Positions 197 through 52,810 of a stretch of DNA of 64,000 nucleotides are shown here, in pieces. The position numbers and the translations under genes are program-made. Positions within the stretch are counted from its first letter, which is position 1; every line of letters begins with the position of its first letter. This DNA comes from Torpedo marmorata (Eukaryota): contig OZ360255.1 in the NCBI GenBank assembly GCA_977017645.1, positions 4,030,001-4,094,000 on the forward strand, in the 5' to 3' direction. The notes beneath the pieces are model-generated. The model saw only the letters and a program-made list of their open reading frames with translations. It made no database searches and was not told where the DNA came from.

Positions 197-840
197 GTTC
201 TAACTGGGAGCTCTGGATGGCCGTGCAGACAAAATGCAGATGCTCTGCAAATTGGTCAAACCCAGACTAGTCGCTTGGTATCGCTGATGTGTAGGGCACC
301 ACACTAGGAGCATCCGATGCAGTGGACAAGTTTGGAGGAGGTGCACATGGAGTCACCTGGAAGGGTTGTGTAGGTCCCTGGATGGTGGTGAGGGAAGGAG
401 GTGTAAGTGTGGTGAGGGAAGGAGGTGTAAGTGTGGTGGGGGAAGGTGCCAGGGTTCCGGGAGGGGTGGACGGACCAGGGAATCATGGAGGGAGTGGTCC
501 CTGTGGAAGTTGCGGAGGAGAAGCTGTGGCTGGTGGAGAGATCACTTTGGCAGCTGGTGGAAATGATGAAGAACGATGTTCTAGATGTGGAGGCTAGTAG
601 GGTGAGAGGTGGGGACAATGGGAAGTCTATCACTGTTCTTTGTGGAGGGAGGGGGGGTGAGAGCAGAAATGGAGGGAGGACTCCTTCAAGTACAGGAGAA
701 GGGAAGCCGTGTTCTGAAAAATGAGGACATTTACATCTCCTGAAGTGGAATCCTGAGAGCAGATGTGGCTGAGACGAGAACCTGGGAGAAAACGATGGAA
801 ACAGGGTGGGAAGGTGTAGTTTAGCTGTGGGAGTCTATGG
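197..840 (-). mobile_element. Degenerate Penelope-like element fragment (GIY-YIG endonuclease region)
   Basis: Minus-strand translation ...CTSSKLVHCIGCS matches the PLE GIY-YIG motif CxSxNxVYCIxC. A better-preserved homolog lies at 52410-52742. Confidence 0.7.
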
Positions 841-1710: not shown

Positions 1711-2355
1711 TCTGCTTCTCCCTCCGTAGGCACCCAATCACAATGAGGTTTTGTTGGTGCGACACTTTTCGTGTTGCAAACATCCCGAGGGCCTTCTGAT
1801 AAATGTTGCCAGGCAGAATTTGTCACAAGAGTTAGAGACCAGAGATTGCATGTTTTACTCTTAAGGGAGGAAAGAGGTGACGGTTTGTGGGAAGGAATTC
1901 CAGAGATTTCAGAATTGACAGCTGAATGCACAGCTGCCAATGGGGATGTGCAAGATGGGAGGGTTTGACGATTGTGGAGCTTTTGGCGCTGTTAGGATTT
2001 GGACAGAGTTTAACCATGGGGAAAAAAACTTTAAAATCATGGTTGAAAATTTTTAACTGAAATTGTCGCCTTCTTCTTTGGATGGGGATCACTTGGAAAA
2101 TCACAATGTTCCTGTCTCTAATGTCCAAGCTGGTAAATTCCAGCAGCGTTGACTGAGGCGACATCAGAAGCAGCAAAAGCTGGGAGCAAGGGGGAGCATT
2201 GTTAGAGTGAAGGAACGGGTGAGCCTTAAAATTCAGCAGTGAAAGGAGCCGTTAGGCCGGTCTCAACAAACTGGAGTAATGAGTGGGGGGGGGGGGGGGA
2301 ACTGATCGGAAGGAAGAGAAAGTTGCTGCAGGGTTCCTCTGCTCCTGGCCATTAC

Positions 2356-2522
2356 AGAAATGCTGGAGGAACTCAGCCGGTCTCGCAGCGTTCATTACCG
2401 ACGAAACGTCGGTTATACAGTATATCTTTACCTCCAATGGACGCTGCGAGAGTGTCTGAGTTCCTCCAGCATTTCTGTGTGTTTTTACTACAACCTCAGC
2501 ATCTGCAGACTTTCGTGTTTCA
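2356..2522 (+). mobile_element. Short Penelope-type terminal-repeat element with inverted arm, 14-bp TSD
   Basis: TSD ctcctggccattac at 2342-2355 and 2523-2536. Arms gaaatgctggaggaactcag and ctgagttcctccagcatttc. Inner hairpin accgacg-aaa-cgtcggt. Confidence 0.75.
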
Positions 2523-2842
2523 CTCCTGGCCATTACTGCTGCTTTCTAATGCTTCCTTGTACAAGTGGATGCTTAACTTCATGGTGGAGAATGACTGCAG
2601 CGTTCTCCCCATGAGCCTGACCAATATTTGTTCATTGAACACTGATAAAACAGATTATCTGGGCAGTCGTGGGCAAATTTTTGTATGTACGGAGAAGACA
2701 TGTCAAATCTACTTTGGTTGTAAGGGAGTTGGAATGTCTGAAGATTGTGTAAGGTTTATTTTGTTAAATGCAGCTAGATCATTAGAATGTTTTAAGGTGG
2801 AGGTAAATAAAGAAGGTGGAGTGAAGAAGGATGAGAGGAGAC

Positions 2843-8498: not shown

Positions 8499-9068
8499 TA
8501 CCACTCAGTGACCAAAAGGGAAGGTCACTTTGAACGGCTGACCCACGAAAGGGTTTTGGAAGCTTAGTGAGAATCACTCGCTTCGTGTCCCCTACGCAAA
8601 TAAAAGGGGAGTTTTGATTGCCACTCATCTGAAAAGGACATTTCTCTGGAAGCCTCGACAAGGAGTTCGTGAGTTTATGACAGTCTCTCCCCCATTCGTG
8701 AACTTCTTTGTATCCATTTAAAGCCTGCATGTCAACATTGGATTTTCTGAGACTGAACTTTGAACTGCCTTTCGAGAATTGTGCCTGAGCTGTAGTTGCT
8801 TGGGGTATTCCACACACTCAACCACACCCACATAAGTATATTCACGCATAGTTGGGGGTTAAGTAGATAAGTTTAGATAAATTAGATAAGGTGTTATGGT
8901 TAACGGTAATTAATAATTTAAAATATTTTAAATATAACACTCTCTGGGCTAATTTCCATTGCTGCTGTCTGGTACGTAGCATCGGATGAGTTTTCTTACA
9001 ATGTAGGTTTATGTGCATTGCAATTGAGTCCAGTTTTAAGTGAATCAGATACCAATAGGAGAGCTGGA

Positions 9069-9213
9069 AGTAAAACACGAAAGTCTGCAGACACCAGGGT
9101 TGAAGTAAAAACACAATGCTGGAGAAACTCAGCAGGTCAAAGATAAAGGTACACAACCAACATTTTGGGCTTGAGCCCTTCTTCAAGGTATGAGCAAAAT
9201 GTAGGCAAGCGCT
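9069..9213 (-). mobile_element. Short Penelope-type element with a degenerate hammerhead-like motif
   Basis: gtaaaacacgaaagtctgcagacacc...tgctggagaaactcagcagg...ttttgggcttgagcccttcttcaaggtatgag. Same family as 10842, 14808 and 24200. Confidence 0.75.
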
Positions 9214-9348
9214 CGGTTCAGTGAGTGGAAAAAAACCCCAGTTGAGAGCCACATCTTTAGGGAATCCTACACCAGGACACCCAAGTCTCTTTGGACCTTT
9301 GCTTTCTGAGTCTCTTCCTGTTTAGGAAATGGTCTACTTCTTTATTTC

Positions 9349-9600
9349 AAGTAAAAACACACCGAAATGCTGGAGGAACTCAGCCGGTCTTTCATCGTCC
9401 ATAGGAGACAAAGATATATTGCCGACCTTTTGGGCCTGAGCCCTTCTTCAAGGAATATTCCTTTAAGAAGGGCTTAGGCCCAAAATGTCGGCAATATATC
9501 TTTGTCTCCTATGGACGCTGTGAGACCGGCTGAGTTCCTCCAGCATTTCGGTGTGTTTTTACTACAAAATCACAGTGTCTGCAGACTTTCATGTTTCACT
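9349..9600. mobile_element. Palindromic Penelope-type element (about 105-bp arms), 14-bp TSD
   Basis: Near-perfect inverted repeat 9351-9563 centred on aaggaatattcctt. TSD tacttctttatttc (9335-9348) and tactactttatttc (9601-9614). Confidence 0.8.
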
Positions 9601-9705
9601 TACTACTTTATTTCTTCTTTCAAAGTGCATGACCCATACACTTCCCTGTGCTGTATTCTATCTGCCACTTCTTTGACCATTCTCCCAATCTGGCCAAGTC
9701 CCTCT

Positions 9706-10603
9706 TGTTACAAATCCAAACCAGCAACGACAGAAGACGCAATGCAAAAGGGGTAAAATTGAAATTTATATTTATTAAACACAATTAAACATATAATTTC
9801 ACAACATTTAACCCCACTATAAACGTCTATAAACACTATTCTTATCTAAAAGGTGTGTGTGTGTGTAAAGCCCAGACCATTACAGTCTGTGCCCAACCCT
9901 TATGTAAAAATGGAAAAACTTTCCCCATAAAACCCAGGTCAGTCATAAAAAAACAAGTCAGTCAAAAAAAAAGATAATATAGTCTACAAATTCACTCTCT
10001 AAGTTCAGGCTTCAACTTCAGCTCTGTGTCTGGTAGAAGTACTTCTGAATGAACGTTGGAGAGAGACAATGACTGTTTATGCTTACAAATACTTGTTTTC
10101 TTCTCTGATGACGTCCCCTTCTTGTATGTTCATAAGGATTGCAAGTTCAGATCAGTATACCACTGATTTAGGCGTATGCTTGAATCTCACAGCTAGTCTC
10201 GCTGATCTCACGCCTGTTCTCCACAGAAGTTGCTTTTTCTCAGAATTTCTCTCTGAGACAGGAGGCCATGTGCTATCCTGCCAGTGATTTTCTCTGGCTT
10301 GCACAAGCCTGGATTTGGCTGTGTCCTGTAGCCTTTGCAACTTACAACTGTCTGCCTTGTGCAGTGAACTACACCTGCTTTTTGCAAAAGTGAAGCAAAT
10401 GTATCTTGTCCACAGTCTGTCTCTCTCTCTCTGGTCTCTCTCTGTCTGGGTACACCAAGAGTGCAACAATGTATCTTGTCTGGGTACACCAAGTAGCTGG
10501 GGAAGTTAACTCTTTCAGTACCTGGCCCCAGTGTATACTCCAAAAGACTTCATCCTTCCTGCTGATCGTCCGCAGTCCAAATGGTCAGTCATGGTCCATA
10601 ACA
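9706..10603 (-). mobile_element. Solo LTR of the Gmr1-type family at 29892-35772
   Basis: tgtta...taaca termini, 4-bp TSD ctct/ctct, very similar to both LTRs of the full element. Confidence 0.93.
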
Positions 10604-10841
10604 CTCTGCAGATTCCCCACTTCCTCCACCTATCTTCATATGATCGGGCCAGTTTTTAAATCCCAGATAGAAATCTCCTTTGGATGCTGGAAGCAGTTGT
10701 TAAATTTATATCTAAACCATGTGCTTTGACACTCCACTCATTTGGAGTGACAAAGGGTTGCCATTGTGATCTAAGTTATGATTAGATGATTCACCTTTAA
10801 TACATTATATTCCCTGATAATATCAGGCCAAATTAGTTAGA

Positions 10842-11940
10842 GTAAAACACAAAAGACTGCAGACACCGTGGTTGAAGTAAAAACACAATGCTGGAGAAAC
10901 TCAGCAGGTCAGTGTCCTTTATGTAGCAAAGATAAAAATACATAACCGGCGTTTCGGGCTTGAGCCCTTCATCAAGGTGTGAACAAAATGTAGGCAGGCG
11001 CCGTGTACTTTATATAGTGTTACAAATTCAAACCAGCAACGACAGAAGACGCAGTGCAAAAGGGGTAAAATTGAAATTTATATTTATTAACGACAATTAA
11101 ACATATAATTTCACAACAGTCAACCCCACTATAAACGTCTATAAACACTTCTTATCTAAAGTGTGTGTGTGTAAAGCCCAGACCATTACAGTCTGTGCCC
11201 AACCCTCAAGGGAAAAAAAATAAAACCTTCCCCAAAACCCCAGGTCAGTCATAAAAATAAGTCAGTCCCAAAAATACAGTCCACAAAAATCACTCTCTGT
11301 GTTCAGGGTCCAAATTCAGCTCTGTGCGCTGGCACGAAGGACTTCTTAATGAACATTGGAGAGAGAGACAATGACTGTTTAAGCTTACGAATGCTTGGTC
11401 TGCTTTCCTTCCGATGGCTTTCCCTTTTGGTAGGTGCACGTGGGTTGCTATTCCAAATCAGTATACCACTGATTCAGGCGTGTACTTGGATCTCACAGCC
11501 TGTCTCACTGATCTCATGCCTGTTCTCTACGAAAGTTGCTTTATATCATGATTTTGCTGATACAAGAGGCCATGTGCTATTTTCCAAGTCTTTCTTCTGG
11601 AATGCACAAGCCTGGTTTTGATGTTGTTGCTTCAGCCTTTTGAAACTCCAAACTGAATGCTTTTTGCTGAGGTTTGCACCTGCTTTTGCAAAAGTGCAAC
11701 AAAGTATATTTTCCATAGCCTGTCTCTCTCTCTCTCTCTTTGTGTGTGTCTCTCTCTGAGTACAGCCAGTCCTGGGCAAGTTAACTTTCAGTACCTGGTC
11801 CAGTGTGTACTCAAAATACTTCATCCTTCCTGCTGACAGTCTGCAATCCAAATGGTCAGTCATGGTCCATAACAATTGCAAAGATAAAGATACATAACCA
11901 ATGTTTTGGGCTTGAACCCTTCATCAATGTATGGAAAAAT
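10842..11940 (-). mobile_element. Penelope-type element with two tandem 91-nt hammerhead-like units, split by a solo LTR
   Basis: Unit starts at 10912 and 11003. The second unit resumes at 11879 after the LTR (caaagataaagatacataacc...cccttcatcaa). Confidence 0.75.
11018..11874 (-). mobile_element. Solo LTR, diverged subfamily of the same Gmr1-type family
   Basis: tgttaca...ggtccataaca termini. TSD atag/attg (1 mismatch). Colinear with 9706-10603 but more divergent internally. Confidence 0.9.
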
Positions 11941-13315
11941 GTTGAAGATGAGGTGGATATCACTGCCTTGCTCGCTCCCTATTCCAAACCAGCATAGAAC
12001 ATATTTAGGTCGTTAAGTGTAATGCTGTTGCCTGCTCCATTCCTTTGCTTTGATAGTATGCATGCTCTGCCATAACTTCCAGGTGTCTGTGATATGCTCA
12101 TGATCGATGGTGTTGATGACCAATGATATTGGACAGATAATAAACATATCCCAAATTCAACCTGGCTATTTTTGGGCATCACTGTCTTACACTGGATGTG
12201 AAGGAGTTTGCTAATATATCCAAATAGAATCTATTTTCATATTCTGCTGCTATTATCAATAGTTTGCTCAAACTATACTATTTCTGTTCTGGATGTGGTA
12301 ATGCTGGGATGTCTATAGATTTGCTGTTACATTTGGCCCTATGCTGTTAATTAGTCTATACACATAGATGTAATTACAGTCACACTTATGTTTATTGTTA
12401 CTCACTATCCTCACTTCTATTAATATCTATCAATTATTGTAATATTTATTGTCCAAGGTGACAGTTTCAAGAGTAATGCTGTTTTTATATTGTTTTCTCA
12501 CCAGATTCTGACGTGATATGAAGGTATTGTTTCCCAGCTGACGAACCATTCCACCTGTACCGTGGCCATTGCTCACCTGTGAGCTTTATACGAGCAGGTT
12601 TGTCAAGCACAACATCTCAGCAGAAGCCACAGTGGGTGTCCACGCAAGGCGGACGTTTCCATGATGGTCAACCATTTGGATGGGAAAACCAAGATGCTGT
12701 TTCAGGCCACCTTTTCCAAAGGCTGATTGATCTGTGTTTCACCTAACCGAGATGAGCTAAACAAGAACCATCCCTGCCTGCGTAGAATGTCTGTACGCTG
12801 GATAAAACTTGGCTCACCTTGCATGATGTTTCCTCAAACCTATAATGCAAGATCAATGGAAAAAAAAATGCATCTGACAGTCATTTTAGTTCTGAGTGTT
12901 TTCACTGTGTATTTACAATGAAATAAAAATATATTTAAAACAATGTAGTAGCTTTATTTGTTCCAGTGTAAATTGAGATACAGTATCTATGATTCATAAA
13001 GGATTGCTTTCATTAAACTTATTGAGTTTTTTTTTTGTTTTGAAAAATAAATGATCGTGCACTCTGAATTTCTTTTTGAAATGTAATTCAATTAAAAATG
13101 AAATTCTAGATATTGGTGTGGAAAAATGTAGTTCCCTTCGTGAAAATATTCATAGTGCAAATCTATAGGGCAGAGGGAAATATTTTGAATCCGAATTTTA
13201 TATGTTAGAAAGTGAATTTTAATATTTTTTTGCACAAAACCACCTCCCCCCTCACCCTCTCCCTCCGTCGCAGAAGGGAGAGATGGGCTTCAGCCCGGGG
13301 GAGCGCGGAGTTAAA

Positions 13316-13323
13316 TGACGTAA
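13316..13323 (+). promoter_or_regulatory. CRE/ATF-type site TGACGTAA
   Basis: atgacgtaat within the CpG island, 7/8 match to the palindromic CRE. Motif match only. Confidence 0.55.
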
Positions 13324-13508
13324 TGCAGCGGCCCCCGCCGGCGAATGGGAGGCGGCGGCGCGGGTCACGCGACGCGGCGACTTCGGCCATCTCCGGCAGC
13401 CGGGCCCGCCGAGTCCGTCCCCCCCCCCACCTCCTCCCTCCCTCCCTCTCCTCCCCTCCCCCCGAGCGCCCGCACGTCGCTGCGCTGCGCTCGGCGAGAG
13501 AACAACAA

Positions 13509-13520
13509 GCCGCCATTTTG
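13509..13520 (+). promoter_or_regulatory. YY1 site GCCGCCATTTTG
   Basis: Exact match to the long YY1 consensus, which usually lies just downstream of the TSS in CpG-island genes. Confidence 0.7.
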
Positions 13521-14425
13521 TTTGGAGGAGAGGAGACGGGGGAAGAGAGCGGAGAGAAGCGAGCGACAGGAGAGAGAGAGGGGGGGGGGGAAAGAGAGAG
13601 AGAGAGAGAGAGGGGGGAGAGAGCCTGCGCCCGGCCGGGTGTGCGGATCGAGGGCGGGGGGGGGGAGAAGAAAAAAAAAAAGAACGAGGAAAAAAAAGGC
13701 GGGGAGGGGGAAGGAAAAAAAAAACCAACAACTAACAAAATATATATAATCTACGAATCCTGTGGAAAAAAAAAACATTTTTATTTAAGGAAAAAAAAAT
13801 GTAAGAAAGGAAAAAAAAAGGCCGAAACATTTGGTGTGATTGGAGAACGTTGGTCCCGTGCAGAGCCGGACGCTTTCTCTTCACACACGGTGGATGAATC
13901 GTTCTCTCTTTAATCGCAGCGAGAGGGGGCAGTTTTTTTAAAAGGAGGTTTTTTTTAATATATATATATTCCTTCCCTTCTCTCCACACCCCCCCCCCCC
14001 TAACCCACCCACCCCCTCCCTCCACAACCGACTGACGAGGGGGGGGTTTTCTCTCCACGGGAGCCGGGAATGTGGAAGGAAAAACGGGCTGTGAGGTGAT
14101 TTAGGATGTGGTTGACGCCGCTGAGCTTTCATCATCTTTAATTATTTTCACCCCCTTTATTTATTTTTTATTCCCCCCCCCCCCCCCGTCCTTATTCTTT
14201 TTTTTTTCCTCTCTCTCTCCTGCCTCTTGATGCCCATGGACGGTCGACCTAGAACGCCTGGGCCCGGCCTTAGGCCTTAGGCCCAGCCTCTCCGATAGGA
14301 GCAAAGGAAGGGTCTCTCTATTTTTTTTTAAAGTTCTCTCTCTCTCTTTATTTTTCCCTTCCCTCGATATTTGGGGAGGGGAGGGGAAGTTGAATATCTT
14401 TTTCTTGACACGTTTGGGGGAAGAA

Positions 14426-14510
14426 ATGGCAGAGAATCTCCTGGACGGACCGCCTTCAGCCAAGCGGCCTAAAATCTCCTCCCCAGCTCCCCCGGCCAGC
14501 GATGGCACAG
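14426..14510 (+). CDS. EP300: Coding exon 1 of p300/CBP-family histone acetyltransferase (EP300 favoured, CREBBP not excluded)
   Basis: ATG in strong context (gaaATGG). Translates MAENLLDGPPSAKRPKISSPAPPASDGT+G, then a phase-1 donor cag|gtacc. Human EP300 starts MAENVVEPGPPSAKRPKLSSPALSASASDGT and human CREBBP starts MAENLLDGPPNPKRAKLSSPGFSANDST. Includes the KRPK NLS. Too short for the ORF track. Confidence 0.88.
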
Positions 14511-14807
14511 GTACCGTGTTCAAACCCTTCTATCTCGCCGAATAGTTGTGTCAGTTTTGGGTTTGTGTGTGTTGATTTTCTTTTAAAACGTCAAACATTG
14601 TTGCTGTACTGAAATATGAAAGATTGAGGCTGTAGTTTTATTTGAACGTTTGTTAAAATTAATGACTCTAATTCTACATATTGGGGGGGGGGGGGGAGAG
14701 AGGTTAATTCATAAAAAATACTCTGTTCTGGTGATACTTTTGCCTGGAAAGGATCTGTGCTTGTCCAGGGTATTGTTATGGAGGATGGTGAAATCTAATT
14801 TTCCCTT

Positions 14808-15145
14808 AGTAAAAACACAGTGCTGGAGAAACTCAGCAGGTCAAACAGCGTACTTTATAGAGCAAAGATAAAGATACATAACCAACGTTTCAGGCTTGAG
14901 CCCTTCATCAAGGTATGAGCAAAATGTTGGCAGGCGCTATGTACTTTATGTAGCAAAGATAAAGGTACATAACCAATGTTTCGGGCTTGAGCCCTTCATC
15001 AAGGTTCCATAAGGGGTGCCTGCCTACATTTTGCTCATACTTTGATGAAGGGCTCAAGCCCTAAACGTTGGTTATGTACCTTTATCTATTCTATATAAAG
15101 CACACTGTTTGACCTACTGAGTTTCTCCAGCATTGTGTTTTTTGC
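14808..15145. mobile_element. Penelope-type element: two tandem 91-nt hammerhead-like units (-) plus an inverted unit (+)
   Basis: Units start at 14850 and 14941, with an inverted arm at 15017-15145. Flanked by an imperfect 37-bp duplication tattgttatggaggatgg...ttttccctt (14771-14807 and 15146-15182). Confidence 0.8.
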
Positions 15146-16909
15146 TATTGTTATGGAGGATGGAGAAGTCTCCTTTTCCCTTCATGGCTTGCAGTTTTAT
15201 CAGTTGTCTTTCCCCCTTCTTTTTAAAGGGATTCTTGTGGTGCCAACATAAAAATCATGCCATTCTAAGGTTTCTGAGTAGTAACTGATGATCATATGGA
15301 TGTATTAGGGCCTTTTGCTTTTGGTTGGTATGTTTTAATGGATCATGTATGTGGTTAGTTTGTTAGGTATGTCAACAGTTGCATCTCTAAAATGTACTGT
15401 TTATAACTTTGCCTGATCTGAGTAACATGCAGATAAAACGAATAACACCATGTTAACACAGTGTGGTAGTATACTTGTCATTCAGTGAGTATCTTTAATT
15501 TTTAAAATTTGGCAAGATTTGTCCAGCAACAGGAAAAAATTTTGAGATATTATTTAAAAGTTTCTTAGAGATGATTAAATACTATTGTTTAGGTGGTACG
15601 TACGGTATGATACATCCAGCATCTATGCTGGAACCCCTTTGCGACCTTTTCAAGAAGGCATGTTTTGACTTTGGGAAACGTGCAACAAACTTCGTTTAAT
15701 TTCTTGTGTTTTAGCAAGAATTAATTTGGGAACATTTCTGAAGAAATTAACTATTTATAATGATGTATAAGGATTTTTCCTGTGCATATGATACAAAACT
15801 TTGCGCTCTGACATGAAATGAGTATTTCGTGTGAATAAACTTTTAACTAACAAGTTATAGTATGTCATTTTCATACTTCAATCGTAAGATAATTCCATGC
15901 ATATTTACATTATTCCTTCTGGTTGGAAATAATTCTAATACTGTAATCGTGAATACTATTTGTTGTATTTTGCATTATTTTAAATATGGTTATTAAAATT
16001 GAATTTGAAGCTAGTAAAATAAACTGGAGCTGAGTAATAAAGGTCAAATTTGGCAAAATCTAGGTCAGGTTTTGGTACAAAGAATGCAGTTCCTGACCAC
16101 ATCAGTGATGCCTATGGTTGATTTTTTTTCTTTTAAATTTTCTGTTTTGTATGAACATGGTACTTTGGATTCCATCTTATATACAGTTATATTTTTGATC
16201 ATTCGCTATGCAGCAGTGGTGCTGTTGCTGTGAGGTGAGCAAAACTGCACTTAGTTTTACAATGATCCTTAGCTGATTCGAATTCGACTTTAAGCTTTTT
16301 GAGGACACTTCGTAAGTGAGAGATTTCCTCAGGTTATTTGACAATAACTCCAACACCAGTTTTAGATGAATTATTGTCAGTCTGGTGAGGCAAAACCTGA
16401 ATTTGTATTCCATAGTTTCAGCTATAGTTTATTGGCAACTGTAAATGTAGTCACACAGTCACAGTCTTGTTGCAAATCAAAAGAATTTTCATTTAAATGA
16501 TCAGTTCATTTGTGGAGCTCTTTGCCAATTATTTCTTAATCTGCTTCATAGTACATGGTCTGCAGTGGTTGCAGTATTAATTTTTCTGTCCACTGACGAG
16601 AATTGATCATCCGCCCGCTTAGAATTTTTCTCTTTCAATCTTTGTCGTGTTCGTTGATTGGTATCACTCAGATACTACTGCATAATTTACCTAGTTTTCT
16701 CTTCAGTGTATTCACTACATCTACTCTTGTAAATACTCTGTACTTGTACGTATTTTTTTTTTGCAGTAACTGCAACTGTGAATATTTATCTATCTTTCCT
16801 TTGATAATTACTATCTCTTTCTGTCATGGCATATTGTGGTAATTTAATTTTTACTGTTGTGGTTGGTGTACCTATGTGGCTGCAGCAAGCAAGAATTCCA
16901 ATGCATCTA

Positions 16910-23465: not shown

Positions 23466-24199
23466 TATTGTTGTCTGTCATCAAACATTTATCCAATTTC
23501 TCCTTTAAAAAAAAACAAAAAAAAAAAAACTTATTATTTCGGATATGGGTATTGCCTGTATGGTCAGCACCTATCAACCATCATTAACCATCACCCACCA
23601 CGGACTCTCGGAACCTGTGAAGAGACTATCTCTTGCTTCTCTTTCTCTTGTTAGGAGCGCCAGGCTATGCTAGTGGCGCATCTTTAGGGCAGGCAAGAGT
23701 TGACAAATTTTGTGTATTATTTCATCCTGTGTATTATTTCATGACAAAAAAGGAATCTTGATAATTGCTCATGAAAAGATGATGAGCCATTACCTTGATA
23801 CAGTTGTTGAAGTCTCAACAGCTTTCTGTGGAAAGCATTCGCTGGAAATTTTCATTGTTGTCAACCTTCTCTCACTGTCCCCTATCTCCCCCACCCCACC
23901 TCCCTGCATTCCATCACAGCAAAGTGACTTTAAATTGAAGTCTTCTTATTACTTATTCATCAAAGGAAATATCTATTTCTCCTGCCAAAGTTCTTTTAAA
24001 GGAAACTCAACAGGTGTTTTGGTCAAATCTGATTCGGTGGAAATAGTCCTTGCACCCCATATCTACCTGTGAAATTAACAGTAACTTTTAGTTCATTATC
24101 ATTCATCTAAATGTTATTGGATATGACTTTTTGACATTCTTTCTATAATAGTGTATTAGAAGTGGCATAAAGCACTCAAGCTGTGACCTAATCTGCATT

Positions 24200-24336
24200 G
24201 ATGAAGGGCTCAAGCCCGAAACGTCGGTTATGTATTTCTACCTTTGCTACATAAAAGACACTGTTTGACCTGCTGAGTTCTCCAGCATTTGTGTTTTTTA
24301 CTTCATCCACGGTGTCTACAGATTTTCGTGTTTACT
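24200..24336 (+). mobile_element. Penelope-type element with the best-preserved hammerhead-like core, 8-bp TSD
   Basis: (tt)gatgaagggctcaagcccgaaacgtcggttatg... TSD tctgcatt at 24192-24199 and 24337-24344. Confidence 0.8.
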
Positions 24337-25295
24337 TCTGCATTTAATAATGTTGGGATACAATCTGGGAGGCTCAATTTTGCATTTTCATTCATGTACT
24401 GTATGTTAATACTATAGAATGCGGGGGTTAATATAATAAAATATCAAATGGATGATGGTAAATATTTTTGAAGAAGCAGTATGGTCTACTTTGGTTTTGA
24501 GCAAAAATGGGTATGGTGACTTTATTGAAGATAAAACAAATTTTGGAGTCGGTGGGGGAATCTTCCCTGCTTACTGAAATGTAAACCAAGCTTATTAAGT
24601 ATAATAGCTCATGGGCATAAATTCCAAAATTTTGGTGTATGTTTCTGAATAATTCCAGTTTGCAACAGGCCATAGTACATTATTGACAAATTTGCCTAGA
24701 ATGATGGTGATTAAAATAATCCAAACTAAATGGCATTGCAGCGTTATTATTATTTAATTCTGTTTGAGTTGATTTCAGATTGAACATAGCCATCATCTCT
24801 ATTTCGTACCAATTTTCTTTCTCTCTCCATTGATTGCATTGATTCATTCACAGTTATGTGAATGCAGATGTGTTTTGATAATTATTCATGTGGGAATCAA
24901 GGCTGTGATTATTAGCAGGGTACCCAGTTGCAGGAAGAGACCGTAAGAGAGCCATCCTCTCTTGTAAAGTTATATAGAAGTTAGATTCTGAAAGCAGGCT
25001 CTTCAATTTGCGCGGACATTTTTCCTCTGTAAGACGATAACTCTAATTACTTTAGCTGTATCTATTTAATCCTTTTTCTTGGTCTTTTCTACCTAATCTC
25101 ATTTTAAATGAATGTTGCTAAATAGTGTACAAGTGAGTTAGGGAGCCTCATCTCTGCAAAGTTTTGTTTAGGTGCTTTGTATTTAATTTTGCATGTATAA
25201 TCCCACGTTCTTTCCACAATGTGAATCATTTTAAATGTGTTTGCCTCCATCATTATTTTTATAGTGGGGGTAAAAGGCTCATGTTTTTATGTCTA

Positions 25296-25539
25296 TAAAG
25301 GTAAAGGTTCCATTATTGTCACGTAATACTACATTTAGAATGTAACATACATGAAATTCTTTAATTTTCTGTCTACCGTAAGGCAGACAGAGGGTCTGCT
25401 ATTTTGTCCAGCGCCCCTCACAGAAACCTACAGCACCTGGTGTTCCTTGGCGGTCTCCCCTCCAAGTACTGACCAGTCCTGTGCCTGCTTAGCTTCCGAG
25501 ATCAGACAATCCCAGTCGTATTCAGGCTATTGGTGCTGT
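25296..25539 (-). mobile_element. 5S rRNA-derived SINE (SINE3 type)
   Basis: Minus strand of 25424-25539 reads gtctgatctcggaagctaagcagg...tggtcagtacttggaggggagaccgccaaggaacaccaggtgctgtaggttt, aligning to vertebrate 5S rRNA (box A, IE, box C). A 128-nt tail follows, ending tgacaataatggaacc(tttacc). Confidence 0.88.
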
Positions 25540-27175
25540 CTATCTAGTATTCTTGATTCTGTTTGGTGGTGGCACTAAATTTGTTTCGATGTCATTTCAG
25601 TTAAATGCAGAATTTAGTTTTTAAACCCAGATTATTCCTGGTTTGCACACTGAGTTGTTTGCTGACATAAGTAACTGAAAAATTAGTGTGGTTTTTAATT
25701 TGAGGGGGCAAAACTTGACTTTTTAAAAAAAATGAGTAGACAGCATTGTGTTGAATTTGTATCATCTCTTGAGTATAATTTAAATTCCAAAAATGCTTTG
25801 AGAATGATCAATCTTATTGACAAATACAGTGATGACAGGATAGATGGCAGAAAATGTTAAATTGATAGATTCTGAGGAGTATATTTAAATAAGAGGGAGT
25901 AGTAGAAAGTTGGAGAGTTAAAGAAGTAAAACAGCTAAAATATCAGTCATTGGGGCTGAGTATTTTCATAAAGAATAAATAGTACAAAAATGCAGAATTG
26001 GAAAGGCAATGTGATCTTAAAGATTTGACTTGCTTTCACACACAAGGCGGCCATTTGGCCCATCAAGTCTGTGATGTTCTCTACAAAGCAATTGAAAAGT
26101 CCCAATTTCTCCTTTATTTCACTGCAGTTTATTCTCTCTTGCATCCTCTGATTTTTGCCAAATATTTGCACTAAGAGATAACGGGCCAATTAACTTTCCC
26201 CGTATTAACCTGTGCTTCTTTGGGATGAGAGGAGGGTGCGGGGAAGAGCAGAAACTCTTGGTTTTGGGCTGAAGGATGTTGCAGATATAGGGAATGAAGA
26301 TTTTTAAACTCGTTTTTTTTTTGAACCAGGATTTATTGTAATTACAAAGCACAAAGGTAATTATTAAGTAGGAGTATGTGTGTTAAAATTTGTTCAGCTA
26401 CTGTTAGATTGAGAACAAGTTATTGTAGAATAGAAGATTGGAATAGCCATGTCCAAGGTTAATGTGTGTATGTGCTCAGATGGAGTAGCTCTGTGTTTTG
26501 GAGATGGTGATAGCAGATATGTGATTCAACACAGCACAAGTTTCAAGAATGGACTGACTTGGTTTCTTACAATTGGCAGAGATAAAGATGGAAACTTGTC
26601 ATCAGTCAATGGAGTTTTCAGAGGGGTCAGAATGACAGTGGTTTCCCTCTTACCAGTTGAGGAAGTGCATGCAATACAATAAACTAGCAAATCTTGTCCA
26701 ATGTGGCTTTGCAAAAGATCGTGTGTCACATCCAAGAAAAAAGAATTTTAAGAAATTGTCTTTGATTCTGCAGAGTTGCTTGTTAAAAGATGGAATTAAT
26801 TATCAGCTGCAGGCTGGTATTGAATTAGTTAGCAACAGTCAACTGGATAACAATCAGGGGACAGATTTTTTTTCCCCCAGCCCTGGAATGCCAAAGACAT
26901 TAACAGCATCACTGTACTTAGTCCACATGATGGAGCTTGGGTGCCGAGCAAAAATTGTATCGGGGTTTTCTCCAGACTGTGGATCAAAGTTTTACTGTGC
27001 AGAGTATTAATGGGTGAAGGAAATTAGATTGAAACATGTTCTAAACCATGCCCTTTCATGCTGCTGTGTCATTTGCCATGCTTTGCTTTGTAAAACTTAT
27101 TTGTGTTACAACATAGTCTCAATTGTACAGAAATTCTTAGATAACGCTGATCTCCATGATTTTAGCAACACCTCT

Positions 27176-29657: not shown

Positions 29658-30774
29658 AACTCCAGGCTGCATGCCATGGGCAACTCTGGAGGGCCAAATG
29701 CAATGGGCCTGTCCCAGATCCTGAGCCGTGTGCACTGTTTGTTAATGTGCTGTGCCTGCTGGAGATTGAGAGAGTTGGTGGGCACTGTGTGTTTAATCCT
29801 CACGTTCCCAATCAGGATTTGAGAATATTTAGTCGTGATTTATTCGCACTCGATGTGTAGTTATTTGTGTATTATTGCTGTGTATGTGTTCTGTTACAAA
29901 ATCAAACCAGCAACGACAGAAGACGCAATGCAAAAGGGGTAAAATTGAAATTACTATTTATTAAAGACAATTAAACATATAAATTCACAACAACTAACCC
30001 CACTATAAACGTCTATAAACACTATTCTTATCTAAAAGGTGTGTGTGTAAAGCCCAGACCATTACAGTCTGTGCCCAACCCTTATGTAAAAATGGAAAAA
30101 AACTTTCCCCAAAAACCCCAGGTCAGTCATAAAAAACAAGTCAGTCAAAAAAAAAAGGATAATACAGTCTACAAAATCCACTCTCTAAGTTCAGGCTTCA
30201 ACTTCAGCTCTGTGTCTGGTAGAAGTACTTCCGAATGAACGTTGGAGAGAGACAATGACTGTTTATGCTTACAAATACTTGTTTTCTTCTCTGATAACGT
30301 CCCCTTCTTGTATGTTCATAAGGATTGCAAGTTCCAGATCAGTATACCACTGATTTAGGCGTATGCTTAAATCTCACAGCTAGTCTCGCTGATCTCACAC
30401 CTGTTCTCCACAGAATTTGCTTTTTCTCAGAATTTCTCTCTGAGACAAGAGGCCATGTGCTCTTCTGCCAGTGATTTTCTCTGGCTTTCACAAGCCTGTA
30501 TTTGGCTGTGTCCTGTAGCCTTTGCAACTTACAACTGTCTGCTTTTCCTGCAGAAATCTGCACCTGCTTTTTGCAAAAGTGAAACAAATGTATCTTGTCC
30601 AGTCTGTCTCTCTCTGTCTGGGTACAACAAGAGTGCAACAATGTATCTTGTTTGGGTACACCAAGTAGCTGGGGAAGTTAACTCTTTCAGTACCTGGACC
30701 CAGTGTATACTCCAAAAGACTCATCCTTCCTGCTGACCGTCCGCAGTCCAAATGGTCAGTCATGGTCCATAACA

Positions 30775-30787
30775 CCTCCCACCCACA
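30775..30787 (-). promoter_or_regulatory. Polypurine tract
   Basis: Minus strand tgtgggtgggagg directly abuts the 3' LTR. Confidence 0.7.
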
Positions 30788-30906
30788 AAGGAAATTTTGG
30801 TCTGCAAGAACAAAATTTAGGAAAGTAATTGAGGTGTCAGAATATAAACAAAATCTACAATGTTCATCCACAAATACAAAATATGAACTATTTTCATTGA
30901 TAAAGT

Positions 30907-33732
30907 TTAACATCTAGAAAGACAATCCGCAATTACATTATCTTTCCCTTTTATATGAGTGATTATCAAATTATATTCTTGCAAAATTAGACTCCAATTC
31001 AACAACCGTCGATTCTTATTTTTCATTTTACAAAGAAAAACCAATGGATTATGGTCAGTATATACTATGAGTGGTTTTTGAGCTGTACAGATATACACAT
31101 CAAAGTGTTGTAGAGCCAACACGAGCCAACAACTCTTTTTCTATGGTTGAATAATTCCTTTGATGATCATTGAACTTCTTCGAGAAGTAGGATACCGGAT
31201 GGTCAATGTCCTCTTCATTCTTCTTCTGTAACAGCACCGCACCCACAGCTTCATCGCTGGCATCCACGGCTAAAGAAAACGACTGTTCTAAATTAGGTGA
31301 CTTAAGCACAGGTTGGTGGCATAACATGGCTTTCAATTTGACAAATGCTTCCTGACAACCTGTTGACCATACAAATTTTTCTTTCTTTCTAAGCAAATTT
31401 GTGAGAGGGAGCGCAAGATCAGCAAAGTTTTTACAGAACTTGCAGTAGTAGCCAATCATTCCCAGGAACCTCCTCAGAGTTTTCTTACCAGTTGGAACAG
31501 GAAACTCAGAAATAGCGACAACCTTTGCCTCTACTGGCGCCAACTGCCCCTGTCCTACTACATAACTCCGAGAATTAACAGTCCCATGACCCTCTCTGAA
31601 ACTGGTTCTATCTGTCTCCTCCTTACCCCTGTCAATAACCAGTACCTCTGGTACATTTTCAGTCCCTTTGTGTGGCACCTGTTCAAAATACGGCTTAATC
31701 ATAATCACATGACAGACCTGTGTGTCTCGTCTGCGATTAGGTGTTTCTATGACATAGGTGACATCATTAATTTTTGACTTAACTCTATAGGGTCCTGAAA
31801 ATCTAGCCCTAAGAGGATTTGAATGGATGGGAAACAGAACTAATACGTTCTCACCAGTTTTAAAAGTTCTCATCTTTGCCTTTCGATCATACCAAACCTT
31901 CATTCTCTGTTGAGTGGCCTTTAAATTCTCCTTTGCCATCTCACAAGCCCTATGCAATCGATCATTAAATTTGGAAACATAATCTAACAGATTTAAATGC
32001 ACATCACGATTAATCCACTGTTCTTTTAATAATCTTAAAGGACCTCTCACCTCATGTCCGAAAACTAACTCAAATGGACTAAAACCAAGTGAGTCTTGGA
32101 CAGACTTCCTCGCTGCAAATAACAACAAATGAACCCCCTCATCCCAATCCTTTTCCTTCTCACAACAATAGGTTCTAATCATGGTTTTCAAAGTCGAATG
32201 GAACCTCCAAGGCCCCTTAACTTTCTGGATGGTACGCAGAGGATACAATCTGTTTAACTCCTAGTGCATCAACCACTTGTTGGAAAACGCCTGACATGAA
32301 ATTACTGCCCTGATCTGATTGAATTTCCCTTGGCAAACCTACCAAGGTGAAAAACTTTACCATAGCCTTTACAATTGACTTTGCTTTTATGTTTCTCAGA
32401 GGAATGGCCTCTGGAAATCTGGTGGCTGCACACATAATTGTTAACAAATATTCATTCCCTGCTTTGGTTTTGGGCAATGGGCCAACACAGTCCACAATTA
32501 CTCTCGAGAAAGGCTCACTGAAAGCAGGGATAGGTTGCAAGCGTGCCACCAGGGGACCCTGATTAGGTTTACCCACCACCTGACAAGTGTGACAGGCCCG
32601 GCAAAAGATTACAACCTCCCTTCTCAAACTGGGCCAATAAAATTGTTTCATTATCTTCCTTATAGTTTTCTTCACCCCAAGATGACCACCTAAGGGTGTA
32701 CAATGAGCCAAAGTTATTATTGCATCCCTATATACTTTAGGGATCACAACCTGCTGCACTACTGCCCATTCTTCATTGGCAGGAACATCACGTGGTCTCC
32801 ACTTTCTCATCAACACCCCATCTTTTTCATAATAACCTACTGGCACCTTTTTAATCACCTCTTCAGAGAGAACGTTATCCCTCACCTCAACAAGATCAGG
32901 ATCGTCCTTTTGCCTTGCTATTAACTCCTGTCGGGATAGTGGTGTCTTATCAGTGGATGGGTGTAACATAGGAGATAGCTCAACCTTTTCCAGGTTTTCT
33001 TGATTATCAGTGTCTTTTTCTTTTACCAAGTTATTTTCCACTGCCTTCCCTACAGTGACATTTTTCTTAGACATGGCCCTGGTTATGGCACATGCCGGAT
33101 AAATATCAGTCTTTCTCTGACTTATCAATGACTGGCTTAGTGGTCATTCGCACTGCAGGAACTACTTTACCCTTGGCCAAGTCATTGCCTAACAACAGTG
33201 AGACTCCTTCTACTGGCAACTCTGATCTCACTCCTATTATAACTGGTCCTTCCACCACGTCTGAGTCCAATACTATTTTGTGCAAAGGAATGGACTCAAC
33301 TTCACCACCAATTCCTTTAATTAAATTTATGTCACCGGTGTCAGTAGCTTCACAAAATTCCAAGACACTATCTAACACAAGTGACTGAGCAGCTCCAGTA
33401 TCTCGCAAGATTTTCACTGGAACTTGTTTTGATCCTGCCTTAACTGAAACAAAACCATCAGTCACAAAAGGTTTAAATACATCTTTAACTTGGTCAGTAA
33501 ATTTATCTCCTTCCTGGGTGTTATGCATCTTCTCACTCTGAATACAAGCATTAGGTGTTGCATCCTTTTCTCTCTTCTTTTTCAACACTGGACAGCTTGC
33601 TAGCATATGACCAGCCTTCCTACAGTAGTGGCAAATGGGACCCGAATTGTTTCCCCTTTTCCACTTTCCTTCATCCCTTTCTTTAACACCACTTCCAAAT
33701 TTACTTTCCACTTGCTTCTGATTATCCACCAT
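30907..33732 (-). pseudogene. Gmr1-type pol region: zinc knuckle, aspartic protease, integrase, RT C-terminal remnant, RNase H
   Basis: CHYCRKAGHMLASC; ILRDTGAAQS; integrase HHCC (H..LGGHLG..CHTC), VDCVGPLP, SDQGSNF, GPY; LAVDASDEAVGAVLLQ, YSTIEKE, YTDHNPL, NVIADCLSR. Split over four ORFs by frameshifts. Confidence 0.9.
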
Positions 33733-33738
33733 GACCTT

Positions 33739-34759
33739 TTAGAAAATTCTACTTGACGTCCACTTAGGCTTGTAGGTTAAAGCATATTCATCTGCTAACT
33801 TAGCTGAATTTTGCCAAGTTTTTACCTCCTTTTCATCTAAGTATGCCTTAATATCCTCAGGAACACACCTTTTTATCTCCTCGATTATTATCAATTCTCT
33901 CAATTGATTGTAATCATTGTTTACTTCCTTAGATGTGCACCACCTGTCAAAACACACAACTTTTTCATAGGCAAACTCTGTATAAGATTGGGTTGCTGAT
34001 CTTTTTAAATTTCTAAACTTCTGTCTATAAGCCTCTGGAACTAACTCAAGCCTGAAGTATAGCCTTTTTCACCGTTTCATAATCAGCAGCTTGCTCTGTG
34101 GTAAGAGTAGAATAAGCTTGCTGAGCTTTTCCTTTTATTACACTTTGTAACATAAGAGACCATTGGTCTTGTGGCCATTTTAATTTCACAGCCACCTTCT
34201 CAAAATGTTGGAAGTACTTATCTATTTCTGCCTCCTCAAATGGAGGAACCAACCTAACTTCTCTACTAGCCAAAAACCCCTCAGCAGGATGACGAATTTG
34301 ATCTTGGCGCTCTTCTTGTCTCCTCTCATTTTCCAACCTCATCTTTTCCAGCTCATATTTCCTATTTTTCTCCTCGTTCTCATATCTCTTTTGTTCTCTG
34401 TCTATCTCCATGTCTAATCTCTTTCGTTCTAATTCCATGTCCAATTTCTTTTGTTCCAATTCCAATTTCTTTATTTCCCTGTCTGCCTCTAATTTCTTTA
34501 GTTCCAACTGTATGTTTTCAGAAGGTTTACCCTTGGGAAACTGCTCTAACATGCTCTCCTCAAACTTTTTTTCTTTTATATAGTATTTGACTATTTTTCT
34601 CCTAATCTCTGCCTTTTTCATAGATGGTTTTACAGAAGCAATGCCCAACTCTGTTGCTATAGCCACTAACTGTTCCTTTTTCGCCTTTTTTAAAGTATCA
34701 GGTTCAGGTGATTCCAAAAAATGTTCTACATCCATTGTTGCTGGTTTTTTGTTACACAC
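33739..34759 (-). pseudogene. Gmr1-type gag with coiled coil and SCAN-like capsid C-terminal region
   Basis: LVPPFEEAEIDKYFQHFEKVA..WP..QW, DYETVKKAIL, FDRWC...LRELIIIEE.KRCVP. Frameshift near 34046. Confidence 0.8.
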
Positions 34760-34844
34760 ACACTAGCTTTTAATTAGCTTTACAAAAGGAATGCCTTAAA
34801 CCAAACTGGGATTCCTTCAATTACCAAGATGGATTTTGATTCAA

Positions 34845-34862
34845 ATCCCGGACGAGCCCCCA
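34845..34862 (-). promoter_or_regulatory. Primer-binding site complementary to tRNA-Pro
   Basis: Minus strand TGGGGGCTCGTCCGGGAT, the canonical 18-nt PBS-Pro, 3 nt from the 5' LTR. Confidence 0.93.
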
Positions 34863-35901
34863 ATTTGTTACAAAATCAAACCAGCAACGACAGAAGACGC
34901 AATGCAAAAGGGGTAAAATTGAAATTACTATTTATTAAAGACAATTAAACATATAATTTCACAACAATTAACCCCACTATAAACGTCTATAAACACTATT
35001 CTTATCTAAAAGGTTTGTGTGTGTAAAGCCCAGACCATTACAGTCTGTGCCCAATCCTTATGTAAAAATGGAAAAAAACTTTCCCCAAAAACCCCAGGTC
35101 AGTCATAAAAAACAAGTCAGTCAAAAAAAAGGATAATACAGTCTACAACATCCACTCTCTAAGTTCAGGCTTCAACTTCAGCTCTGTGTCTGGTAGAAGT
35201 ACTTCCGAATGAACGTTGGAGAGAGACAATGACTGTTTATGCTTACAAATACTTGTTTTCTTCTCTGATGACGTCCCCTTCTTGTATGTTCATAAGGATT
35301 GCAAGTTCCAGATCAGTATACCACTGATTTAGGCGTATGCTTAAATCTCACAGCTGGTCTCGCTGATCTCACGCCTGTTCTCCACAGAATTTGCTTTTTC
35401 TCAGAATTTCTCTCTGAGACAAGAGGCCATGTGCTCTTCTGCCAGTGATTTTCTCTGGCTTTCACAAGCCTGTATTTGGCTGTGTCCTGTAGCCTTTGCA
35501 ACTTACAACTGTCTGCTTTTCCTGCAGAAATCTGCACCTGCTTTTTGCAAAAGTGAAACAAATGTATCTTGTCCGGTCTGTCACTCTCTCTCTCTCTCTC
35601 TGGTCTCTCTCTGTCTGGGTACACCAAGAGTGCAACAATGTATCTTGTCTGGGTACACCAAGTAGCTGGGGAAGTTAACTCTTTCAGTACCTGGCCCCAG
35701 TGTATACTCTAAAAGACTTCATCCTTCCTGCTGACCATCCGCAGTCCAAATGGTCAGTCATGGTCCATAACAGTTCGTTAGTTGTGACCATTGCTGAACT
35801 CCAGGCTGCGAGCCACGAGCAGCTCCGGAGGGCCGACTGCAATGGGCCCATCCCAATTCCAGAGCAGCGGCGACACTGGAGATCACGTTCATGTGTATGT
35901 A

Positions 35902-48158: not shown

Positions 48159-48395
48159 TAAAGGTTCCATTATTGTCACGTAATACTACATTTAGAATGT
48201 AGCATACATGAAATTCTTTAATTTTTGTCTACCGTAAGGCAGACAGAGGGTCGCTACTTTGTCCAGCGCCCCTCACAGAAACCTACAGCAACCTGGTGTT
48301 CCTTGGCGATCTCCTCTCCAAGTACTGACCAGTCCTGTTCCTGCTTAGCTTCTGAGATCAGACAATCCCAGTCGTATTCAGGCTATTGGTGCTGT
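48159..48395 (-). mobile_element. 5S rRNA-derived SINE, second copy
   Basis: Colinear and highly similar to 25296-25539. Confidence 0.88.
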
Positions 48396-50201
48396 ATATG
48401 TGTTTACCCACTCTGCCAAGTGCCTTCTGCCTACATGTGGCAGATTCTTTTTGTCCTAACATTTGTCTCACCAAGTTCTTCCACATTTGAAGGATTAGAA
48501 TGGAAGCAAGTTATCTTTCAGCAATCCCTTGGGATTGAGAATTTACACTGAACCATTCTTGTCAGTGGAATTGCAGTCGATTATGTGTCCAGTTGGCATT
48601 TTCCTGCCACCTCTCTTTGATTTGAGAAAAGATCTAGCATTAAGTAAAGATCTTTCAAACTCTCATTTTGGCTGGAGAGCATTTTGAATTGTATCGCAAT
48701 CTATTGTTTTCCAATTGGTACCAGATAAACTCTCTAAACCTTTTTGATACTTTCATCGAGCTTCAGGTACACTTCAAAGTTTGGACTTTTTGTTACATTG
48801 TTGGAAGAAGTAACAGCCCATATCTGTACTCCAAAGCGGAAGATTTAATAGTAGAGTTAAAGTTAATTTATTTCTTACTCTTCAGTCTTTTGTGTTTAAT
48901 GTTTGTGATTTCTTAAAGGTTTCCAGGATTTGTCAGGTTTTATTGTTAATGAATCTAGGTTTGCTTTAACATGAAGTTTTATTTCTCATTGTTTCTGTGT
49001 TTGTAGTTTAACCTATTTTCTTTTAGCATGCGTTATTAGTATCTGCTCATTGGAACAGTTATCAAAAGTTGTACTTGGCTATCTGTGCTTCAAACAGTTA
49101 ACAAATTTTCAATGCTTCTCGAGTTCAAATGCTGAAATAAGTTGGATAGATCTGTTTCTGTGTAGTACATCATCTATAATAGTGTGTAGAGGCATATAGA
49201 TATGTTGATGCATAGATGCTGAGGTGGGTGGTTGAAGGACTGAACTTAGTCCTTCTTAGGACTAAATCATAGTCGGAGACTTTAACCAGGCTTGTCTCAA
49301 TAAATCCCTGCCCAGCTACCACCAGCATGTAACCTGCTGTACCAGAGGTCCCAGCATACTCGATCACTGGTGCACCAAGATAAGGAAGGCCTACCGTTCT
49401 TTCCCGAGTCTGCATTTTGGCAAGTCGGATCATCTTGCTATGCTCCTTCTGCCTTCATACAGACTGCCTAAAAAGAGAGGCTCCGGAGATCAGGACAGCT
49501 AGAAGCAGGAGGCTGAAGAATGGTTGCAGGACTTCCTTGATTCAGCAGATTGGGCGGTGTACAAGGACTCCACTGAGGATCTGAATGATTACACCAAGGC
49601 TGTCACAGACTATCAAAATAGCTGTTGTCGAGTGTATCCCCACCAAATCGTTCAGGGTTTTCCCCAACCAGAAGCCCTGGATGAACAATAAAATCCGGAA
49701 CCTGCTGAGAGCCAGATCACAGGTATTTAAGTCTGGAGATCCAGATCATTACAGAAGGAGCAGGTATGACCTGCAGAAAGCCATCTCCCGGGCAAAGTGG
49801 AGTTTCCAGACGAAAATGGAAACCACCAGGGATACCCGACAGCTGTGACAGGGCCTAAATGACAAACTGCTACAAAACAAAATCCGGTGCAGTAGGAGAC
49901 GGCAAAGCTTCACTCCCTGACGAACTCAATGCCTTCTACGTACGATTCGACCACAAGAACAAGTAAGAACCACCACTGCGCACCCCCATGTCCCCTGATG
50001 ATCCTCTCCTGTCCGAGGATGATGTGCGGGCTGCCTTCAGGAGAGTGAATCCGAGGAAAGCATCCGGTCTGGACGGAGTACCCGGCCGAGTATTAAAACT
50101 CTGTGCTGACCAACTTACCAAAGTATTCACGCTTATCTTAAACATCTCACTCTGGCAGGACGTGGTACCCACCTGTCTCGAACAGGCGTCAATCCTACTG
50201 G

Positions 50202-52034: not shown

Positions 52035-52409
52035 CCGGTGCCCAAGAAGAGTGGTAACCTGCCTAAATGAATATCGACCAGTGGCACTCACATCAACAGT
52101 GATGAAGTGTTTTGAAAGGCAGATGTTGAAGCATATCAGCTCCTGTCTGAGCGGCGACATGGATCCATTCCAATTCGCCTATCGTAGCAACAGGTCTATG
52201 GCGGATGCCATCTCATTGGCTCTACACAAAGCCCTGGACAGCAAAGATGCATATATCAGGATGCTCTTTATTGACTACAGTTCGGCATTTAACCTGGGAC
52301 TCAACACCCCACTGTGTAATTAGATCCTTGATTTCCTCACCTACAGACCACAATCAGTGAGGATTGGTTAGAACATCTCCTCCGCTGTGTTCTTAGCCCC
52401 CTGCTCTAC

Positions 52410-52810
52410 TTCCAAGTGAAGTAACATTTCACTTGTGAATCTGCAGGGGTCAACTACTGCATCCAGTGCTCCTATTGTGGTCTCCACGACATCGGAGAGA
52501 CTGGACGCAGACTGGGAGATCGCTTTGTTGAGCACCTCAGCTCTGTCCGCCACAATTGCGTGGATCTCCCAGCGGCCACCCATTTCAGTTCCCCATCCCA
52601 TTCCCTTGCTGATATGTCTATCCATGGTCTCATGCACTGCCAGACTGAGTCCACCCGCAAATTGGAGGGTCAACACCTCATCTTCCGACTCGGCACCCTC
52701 CAACCGGATGGCATTAATATCAACTTCTCTGGCTTTCGATAAAACCGCCCCCCCCCTCACTTCTTCCCCGTCACCTTCCCCCAGCTCTGTCTCTCTCCCT
52801 TTTCCCTGTA
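52410..52810 (+). mobile_element. Penelope-like element GIY-YIG endonuclease fragment
   Basis: HFTCESAGVNYCIQCSYCGLHDIGETGRRLGDRFVEHL...ATHF...RKLEGQHLIFRLGTLQPDGINI, with a stop at 52740-52742. Confidence 0.88.

Follow-up and report, generated by a model that had tools for sequence, protein, structure and literature searches.

A hammerhead-bearing 91-nt tandem at Penelope-like element ends is concentrated in a few segments of the Torpedo marmorata genome

Copies of a Penelope-like element (PLE) end that carry one particular 91-nt tandem duplication of a hammerhead segment lie, with few exceptions, in less than 1% of the 6.2-Gb genome of Torpedo marmorata, and their sub-variants are sorted by distance. 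This distribution is notable; what one expects of retroelements is dispersal over the whole genome. The overall best explanation, in which we have moderate confidence, is that a dimer-bearing PLE end spread locally by target-primed insertion. The locus at the origin of this work lies at position 14808 of a window of 64,000 nt (the whole stretch of DNA that was analysed, C78:4030001-4094000), and positions given without a contig refer to that window; its features are collected in Table 1.

Table 1. PLE-related and neighbouring features of the window
Feature	Position	Strand	Remarks
Degenerate PLE linker/endonuclease remnant	271..534	-	blastn and tblastx against L073, E 1e-9 to 5e-5
Short palindromic insertion, sister subfamily	2354..2524		
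Single-unit truncated PLE end	9068..9215	-	
Palindromic (tail-outward) insertion, sister PLE subfamily	9346..9601		
Second junction locus, last unit and full tail to +138	10841..11002	-	
3' part of upstream unit, interrupted by solo LTR	11003..11017	-	15 nt
Solo LTR inside upstream unit	11018..11874	+	TG...CA ends; 4-bp duplication with one mismatch
Rest of upstream unit, decayed hammerhead core	11875..11942	-	
First coding exon, EP300-like gene	14426..14510	+	gene searches
Left copy, 37-bp target-site-duplication-like direct repeat	14771..14807	+	89% identical to 15146-15182
Last 91-nt unit and PLE tail to +103	14808..14938	-	hammerhead core 14911 to 14884; C11.1 -> U
5'-truncated upstream unit	14939..15005	-	core 15002 to 14975; 91-nt junction at 14938/14939
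Inverted arm, one unit and tail	15014..15145	+	core 15042-15069; G12 -> U
Right copy, 37-bp direct repeat	15146..15182	+	pairs with 14771-14807
Single-unit PLE end truncated at core	24198..24337	+	C17 variant
GIY-YIG end remnant of related PLE	52409..52742	+	77% identical over 322 nt to L073 PLE body

The preliminary description had seen in this repeat a separate, ORF-less mini-element of Penelope origin. The origin is confirmed and the separate status is rejected, because genome copies extend upstream through a pyrimidine-rich 3'UTR into the C-terminus of a GIY-YIG endonuclease and, in L062/L073, on into a broken reverse transcriptase (RT); PLE copies thus do end in this repeat. An RT followed by a C-terminal GIY-YIG endonuclease is found upstream of it in L062/L073 and L005. 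Pfam matches on these broken copies, RVT_1 (E=0.0026) and GIY-YIG (E=0.00018), both fall below the curated cut-offs. Seven protein homologues were found, three of which, from rays, have RT domains or names and carry PF26215 as listed; the best protein matches of the PLE body are likewise from rays. A CCHH endonuclease motif and a CX2-5CxxC linker finger were read by eye in the L062 and L005 translations. In the available part of PMC8557442, CCHH and a linker zinc finger define the Neptune-clade endonuclease, and Nematis also has both; the family would thus fit the Neptune (or Nematis) definition, an assignment by motifs and not by RT phylogeny. We hold it to be very likely that the repeat represents a PLE 3' end (pLTR), of Neptune type.

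Its copies bear the insertion marks of PLEs: 5' truncation, inverted arms, a 30-40 bp tail and target duplications of variable length. No full-length donor was found, the longest copy seen being the broken L073 (about 1.8 kb). A word of 35 nt from the tail occurs without mismatch 11,881 times in the genome. Among 74 tail-anchored copies on contig C1, 5' ends are scattered along the unit, and 30 of the 53 scored control copies from this contig extend to the 3'UTR. Judged from their sequence, single-unit copies are ordinary 5'-truncated PLE ends. Two further observations concern the family at large. A segment with a PLE end is present on C80 and on four small scaffolds, 96-99.6% identical (L021-L025), a recent segmental or tandem amplification; and single insertions that join units or inverted arms of two subfamilies (L004, window 11875-11942, L038, L150) suggest that the template was switched from one RNA to another or that conversion followed later.

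Intron 1 of an EP300-like gene holds the focal insertion, some 300 nt from its first base; the gene is tentatively named EP300 rather than CREBBP on a 2-bit PDB difference and synteny only. A GC-rich promoter region together with the first coding exon occupies 13200-14510; exon 2 and the TAZ1 exons were found in L161 and L162. The locus is an inverted structure between 37-bp direct repeats: the - strand carries two units, the + strand a third (15014-15142). The segment 14850-14914 recurs at 14941-15005 with 92% identity and a period of 91, and all three cores are damaged, one by a broken palindrome (the ACGU of the upstream unit, lost to CpG decay) and the others by C11.1 -> U and G12 -> U. 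A unit repeated at 91 nt had been reported at two loci of the window: that at 14850/14941 stands as described, whereas at the other the unit beginning at 11003 runs for 15 nt before a solo LTR and resumes at 11875-11942. This LTR is 78-80% identical to three other LTR copies of the window. The six sites initially grouped as one family all match it, but those at 2356 and 9349 fall in a sister subfamily, 73-83% identical to the main one. The Penelope remnants announced near 197 and 52410 were both recovered as PLE matches.

Other repeats of the window were also noted. The palindromes at 9346-9601 and 2354-2524 (tail-outward) form long hairpins with weak scores against miRNA models, and the Rfam miRNA matches reflect these palindromes only. 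Gypsy-like solo LTRs lie at 9706-10603 and 11018-11874, the family of the latter also interrupting a junction array on C41 (L035), and 29892-35772 is a Gypsy-like LTR retrotransposon whose gag-pol is broken, whose LTRs are 95% alike and whose target duplication measures 4 bp. At 25302-25543 and 48159-48399 lie two copies of a 243-nt sequence, 96% alike, with a 5' half above the Rfam 5S rRNA threshold; they are probably a 5S-derived SINE.

The consensus had been mapped onto a minimal type I hammerhead, and this architecture is indeed present on the - strand: core boxes, one extra base, a 4-bp stem II, GAAA, an ACGU palindrome (15.1-16.1) and a stem I of 6 bp with one bulge that closes both ends. 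It is the minimal form without helix III, and the loop 1-loop 2 contacts of the canonical type I hammerhead are absent. The proposed model search had a mixed outcome: an Rfam scan returned no hammerhead model among 20 matches up to E=10, while a relaxed descriptor gave 242 matches, against 5 after mononucleotide shuffling, in a 751-kb sample that is enriched, consisting mostly of loci fetched for this family. In a pile-up of 405 alignments, position 3 (numbered 0 hereafter) is U in 280 of 290 copies, as had been noted, and faces G8, so that neither a C3-G8 pair nor a compensated U3-A8 characterises this subfamily. The UC cleavage site first described, by contrast, is a minority form (GUC): position 17 is mostly U, with 299 U and 33 C among 336 aligned copies; the 72 copies of the C1 control have 60 U and 11 C. 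C3 is retained in sister families (2,904 matches, against 0 with the reversed pattern), and among the 100 matches listed position 7 is free, loop II varies, A-U recurrently replaces G-C in stem II and some stem II pairs are compensated. This retention of C3 with compensated pairs argues that the motif is a genuine PLE minimal hammerhead by descent, in which the present subfamily has fixed an uncompensated U3. Such a U3 would weaken hammerhead cleavage. We consider the hammerhead of this subfamily as probably an inherited motif, weak or dead (U3-G8, mostly GUU); past weak cleavage is possible, and present activity appears unlikely.

The 91-nt tandem extends far beyond the two loci at which it had been noticed. 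Three search patterns yielded 95 matches to the junction, distributed over 84 loci; a C69 match with a different junction was excluded. A fuzzy search of the fetched loci yielded 84 arrays, nearly but not exactly the same set, comprising 76 dimers, 5 trimers and 3 tetramers. The duplicated segment, an exact tandem, spans -27 to +63, and its spacing is fixed in 57 of 59 gap-tolerant pattern matches. Flanks are unique among arrays except in one duplicated pair, and a search for 5' transduction from truncated donors found no common upstream flanks beyond one pair. Array 3' ends lie mostly at about +103 and +137-139, which matches the 30-40 bp PLE tail described in the available part of PMC8557442. 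The match extends into this tail in 54 of the 84 arrays, and 12 of these 54 are flanked by direct repeats of 11-45 nt; 24 of 56 in-unit 5' ends adjoin an inverted arm, which in L052 carries the junction too, and one array reaches into the ORF end (L084).

Three different organisms have contigs that span the junction and cover 31 nt or more to either side of it (one possible RNA-run contig with 26 nt on one side was not counted); the junction is thus old. Joints stepping back by 91 that turned up among these contigs represent the usual single-unit form. Non-CpG divergence is 8.9% between units within dimers (40 pairs) versus 8.1% between loci. Several arrays of at least three units have private mutations common to neighbouring units, which points to expansion in DNA after insertion. 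Some arrays mix subfamily marks, such as +59G in 7 of 61 last units, which indicates that conversion or template switching also acted. From these observations we infer that the duplication arose long ago in a single donor and was spread by linear RNA bearing the tail, expansion at the DNA level coming afterwards; descent from a dimer donor is likely. Three loci carry one-off hammerhead-segment duplications with other junctions (L118, L221 and L091; about 60, 36 and 106 nt): such duplications arise repeatedly and seldom spread.

Eighty of the 84 junction loci fall on contigs C41, C45 and C78 (4.6% of the genome), as opposed to 9 of 88 loci of a single-unit control word (p=3e-33). They occupy segments at 1.8-33.4 Mb of C41, 32.1-35.2 and 62.2-67.1 Mb of C45 and 0.4-8.2 Mb of C78, about 47 Mb or 0.8% of the genome; these limits were drawn post hoc, unlike the contig-level test. 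Only 3 of the 88 controls lie inside the segments, one of them itself a junction array. On C78, which measures 37 Mb, the initial 8.3 Mb contain all 30 junction loci and 2 of the 7 controls. The fuzzy search detected no junction among 94 units at loci outside the segments. A blind 30 kb outside them contained no units, and a blind 200 kb inside contained 6 units with 0 junctions, so that junction density is estimated from the pattern searches alone. Among 83 arrays, non-CpG variants are shared more often by arrays of one contig (p=0.001, the lowest value that 1000 permutations allow) and by arrays less than 1 Mb apart (p=0.009, permutation); one example, picked after viewing the table, occurs in 8 of the 14 arrays on C45, in both clusters there, versus 5 of 57 others. 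One of the four outliers, on C39, reproduces a C78 locus over 944 bp at 97% identity, flanks included, and ends in an A-rich run; the block (L032 1256-2199 and L139 743-1686) was copied from C78 to C39 and resembles a LINE-mediated copy.

Contig structure among single-unit parent copies gave p=0.002 before filtering and p=0.21 under a strict filter (40 copies), and a general regional structure of these copies was rejected, its significance having been lost on filtering for CpG and low complexity. A stretch of C58 (34.1-46.5 Mb, L223-L233) holds 11 of the 88 control-word matches in 12.5 Mb and adjoins the only C58 junction copy; it may be a second local lineage or reflect CpG retention (GC 0.51). 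Genes identified in the segments are GPR3 (96% identical to a Narcine bancroftii protein) and a TMEM200B-type gene on C41, WDR77 on C45 and EP300 on C78, which, following vertebrate maps, we take to belong to three different ancestral small chromosomes. A single ancestral vertebrate chromosome for all three segments is not supported by these four genes, and the local reading consequently needs lineage-specific fusion or nuclear proximity. C78 also carries three tandem heme oxygenase genes (C78:6918100-6936525).

Target-primed reverse transcription is the established mechanism of PLEs, and would have left PLE ends as 5'-truncated, inverted insertions. One copy would have gained the exact 91-nt tandem duplication, probably through an RT template jump. 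The dimer-bearing RNA, still with its PLE tail, would then have been copied by the PLE RT/GIY-YIG into at least 84 sites, as truncation, inversion, tail and target duplications suggest; nested common variants point to some daughter copies having turned donors, and a few arrays would have grown to 3-4 units in DNA. The strongly local spread would most readily be explained by nascent nuclear RNA being captured and inserted near its transcription site. PLEs keep introns, suggesting nuclear RNA as template. Serial local retrotransposition is our preferred reading of the confinement, to which we give an even chance, and the present copies are fossils, about 4% diverged. More tentatively, Penelope machinery might in general capture non-coding RNA at the transcription site and insert it near the donor in nuclear space, serial hops then covering tens of megabases; the junction would be a lineage tag both of this spread and of the early birth of a retrozyme-like array, with dimer cleavage possibly trimming the donor RNA.

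The preliminary description had favoured a very small RNA element replicating as a cleaved or circular monomer. In its full form, this is a working retrozyme: the dimer self-cleaves as a double hammerhead, and the resulting 91-nt RNA, linear or circular, returns to the genome by rolling-circle reverse transcription. The tandem arrangement, with its fixed period and palindromic helix III, would suit such a cycle, as would the C3 of sister families and an excess of 5' ends at +24 to +34, near the predicted cut after +27 (13 of 70 arrays versus 2 of 53 controls, p=0.013; ends beyond +44 and internal jumps, in 14 arrays and 21 controls, set aside). This excess is however broad, without the sharp truncation peak sought at the cleavage site, and is not significant among in-unit ends (13/56 versus 2/23, p=0.21). 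Arrays end in a PLE tail that a 91-nt circle would not carry, which argues for a linear tailed RNA and not a rolling circle. U3 prevails, the double-hammerhead fold is predicted to lie 12.1 kcal/mol above the predicted minimum, and regional confinement is left unexplained. Non-LTR retrozymes have at least two units, each with a complete hammerhead; the structure exists in the lineage, yet only 2 of the 84 arrays, and not the focal locus, keep intact cores in both units, even with U3 allowed. Nor do the multimers appear to derive from a circular monomer, given the tail and the private mutations of neighbouring units. We regard a working retrozyme as highly improbable.

Regional and nested clustering would also follow from ectopic gene conversion, whereby a junction of single origin was transferred to PLE ends already present nearby by distance-limited intrachromosomal repair, with no insertion preference needed; mixed marks would be accounted for, and target duplications would persist from the recipients. 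Arrays should then mirror resident copies, yet they reach the 3'UTR in 14 of 70 cases, against 30 of 53 controls (p=5e-5), and the -17G subfamily mark is present in 1 of their 26 upstream units but in 21 of 70 controls (p=0.006), the controls in both comparisons coming from C1 and not from the same segments; moreover, the inverted arm of L052 has the junction as well. Gene conversion as the main cause seems unlikely to us. Alternatively, the segments may have a history of their own, through introgression or as mis-scaffolded pieces of one special chromosome, such that a dispersed lineage now looks local. Electric rays have rearranged karyotypes, and the segment edges are sharp on three contigs, both in keeping with this idea; the sub-variants, however, are themselves sorted by contig and distance, the junction is old, SoxE and USP7 searches reveal no extra gene set, and even one chromosome would require local spread to hold a chromosome-limited retroelement lineage. 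We consider a separate history very improbable.

Tagged and confined as it is, the lineage offers a direct handle on the place at which the RT of PLEs encounters its template RNA, and on how pLTRs become retrozyme arrays. In electric rays it could, in addition, serve as a marker of former fusions or contacts between chromosomes. We found no report of a regionally confined PLE or retroelement lineage in the literature searched (titles and abstract openings, with subscription papers thinly covered). As far as this search reaches, the tagged, confined dimer lineage is new, although the tables of bioRxiv 10.64898/2026.07.22.740005 might list a similar ray retrozyme family.

Hammerheads in Penelope ends are already known and published. 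Like the Neptune PLEs with pLTR minimal hammerheads, as presented in the available parts of PMC4209133 and PMC8557442, the ray family has an RT, a C-terminal GIY-YIG with CCHH and a linker finger, and likewise shows 5' truncation, inverted arms and a 30-40 bp tail. Minimal hammerheads of PLEs have an extra base after A9, a G10.1-C11.1 pair and a palindrome, and occur mostly singly in truncated copies (PMC4209133, available part); the ray motif shares all of these features, most of its copies also being single and truncated. It departs from the variant published there, a compensated U3-A8, in that U3 faces G8, mostly with GUU. Two further differences from these Neptune PLEs are the exact internal 91-nt duplication, which forms a lineage in its own right, and the restriction of that lineage to about 0.8% of the genome. 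Chlamys non-autonomous PLEs such as MRC1, in what could be consulted of PMC8557442, are also non-coding, with the 3' end of an autonomous PLE and head-to-tail copies; they belong to another clade.

Vertebrate non-LTR retrozymes are described as PLE derivatives with units of 51-972 bp and, in most families, few units (bioRxiv 10.64898/2026.07.22.740005; PMC7229834; accessible portions of both). The ray arrays resemble them as pLTR-derived tandem hammerheads of few units, with 91 nt within that range, and Xenopus retrozyme dimers and multimers are, in the same portions, enriched in a few chromosome regions, as is the ray lineage. In contrast to vertebrate retrozymes as portrayed in the accessible text of bioRxiv 10.64898/2026.07.22.740005, the ray arrays have a PLE tail and insertion marks, with minimal instead of canonical hammerheads that are rarely intact; they are dispersed single insertions over megabase segments, as opposed to centromeric or telomeric arrays. 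Local hopping of a cut-and-paste DNA transposon provides another parallel (PMC12477816, in part): daughters are likewise concentrated near presumed donors. Local bias is ascribed there to elements that move by cut-and-paste and set against the behaviour of copy-and-paste elements, whereas the ray element is RNA-mediated.
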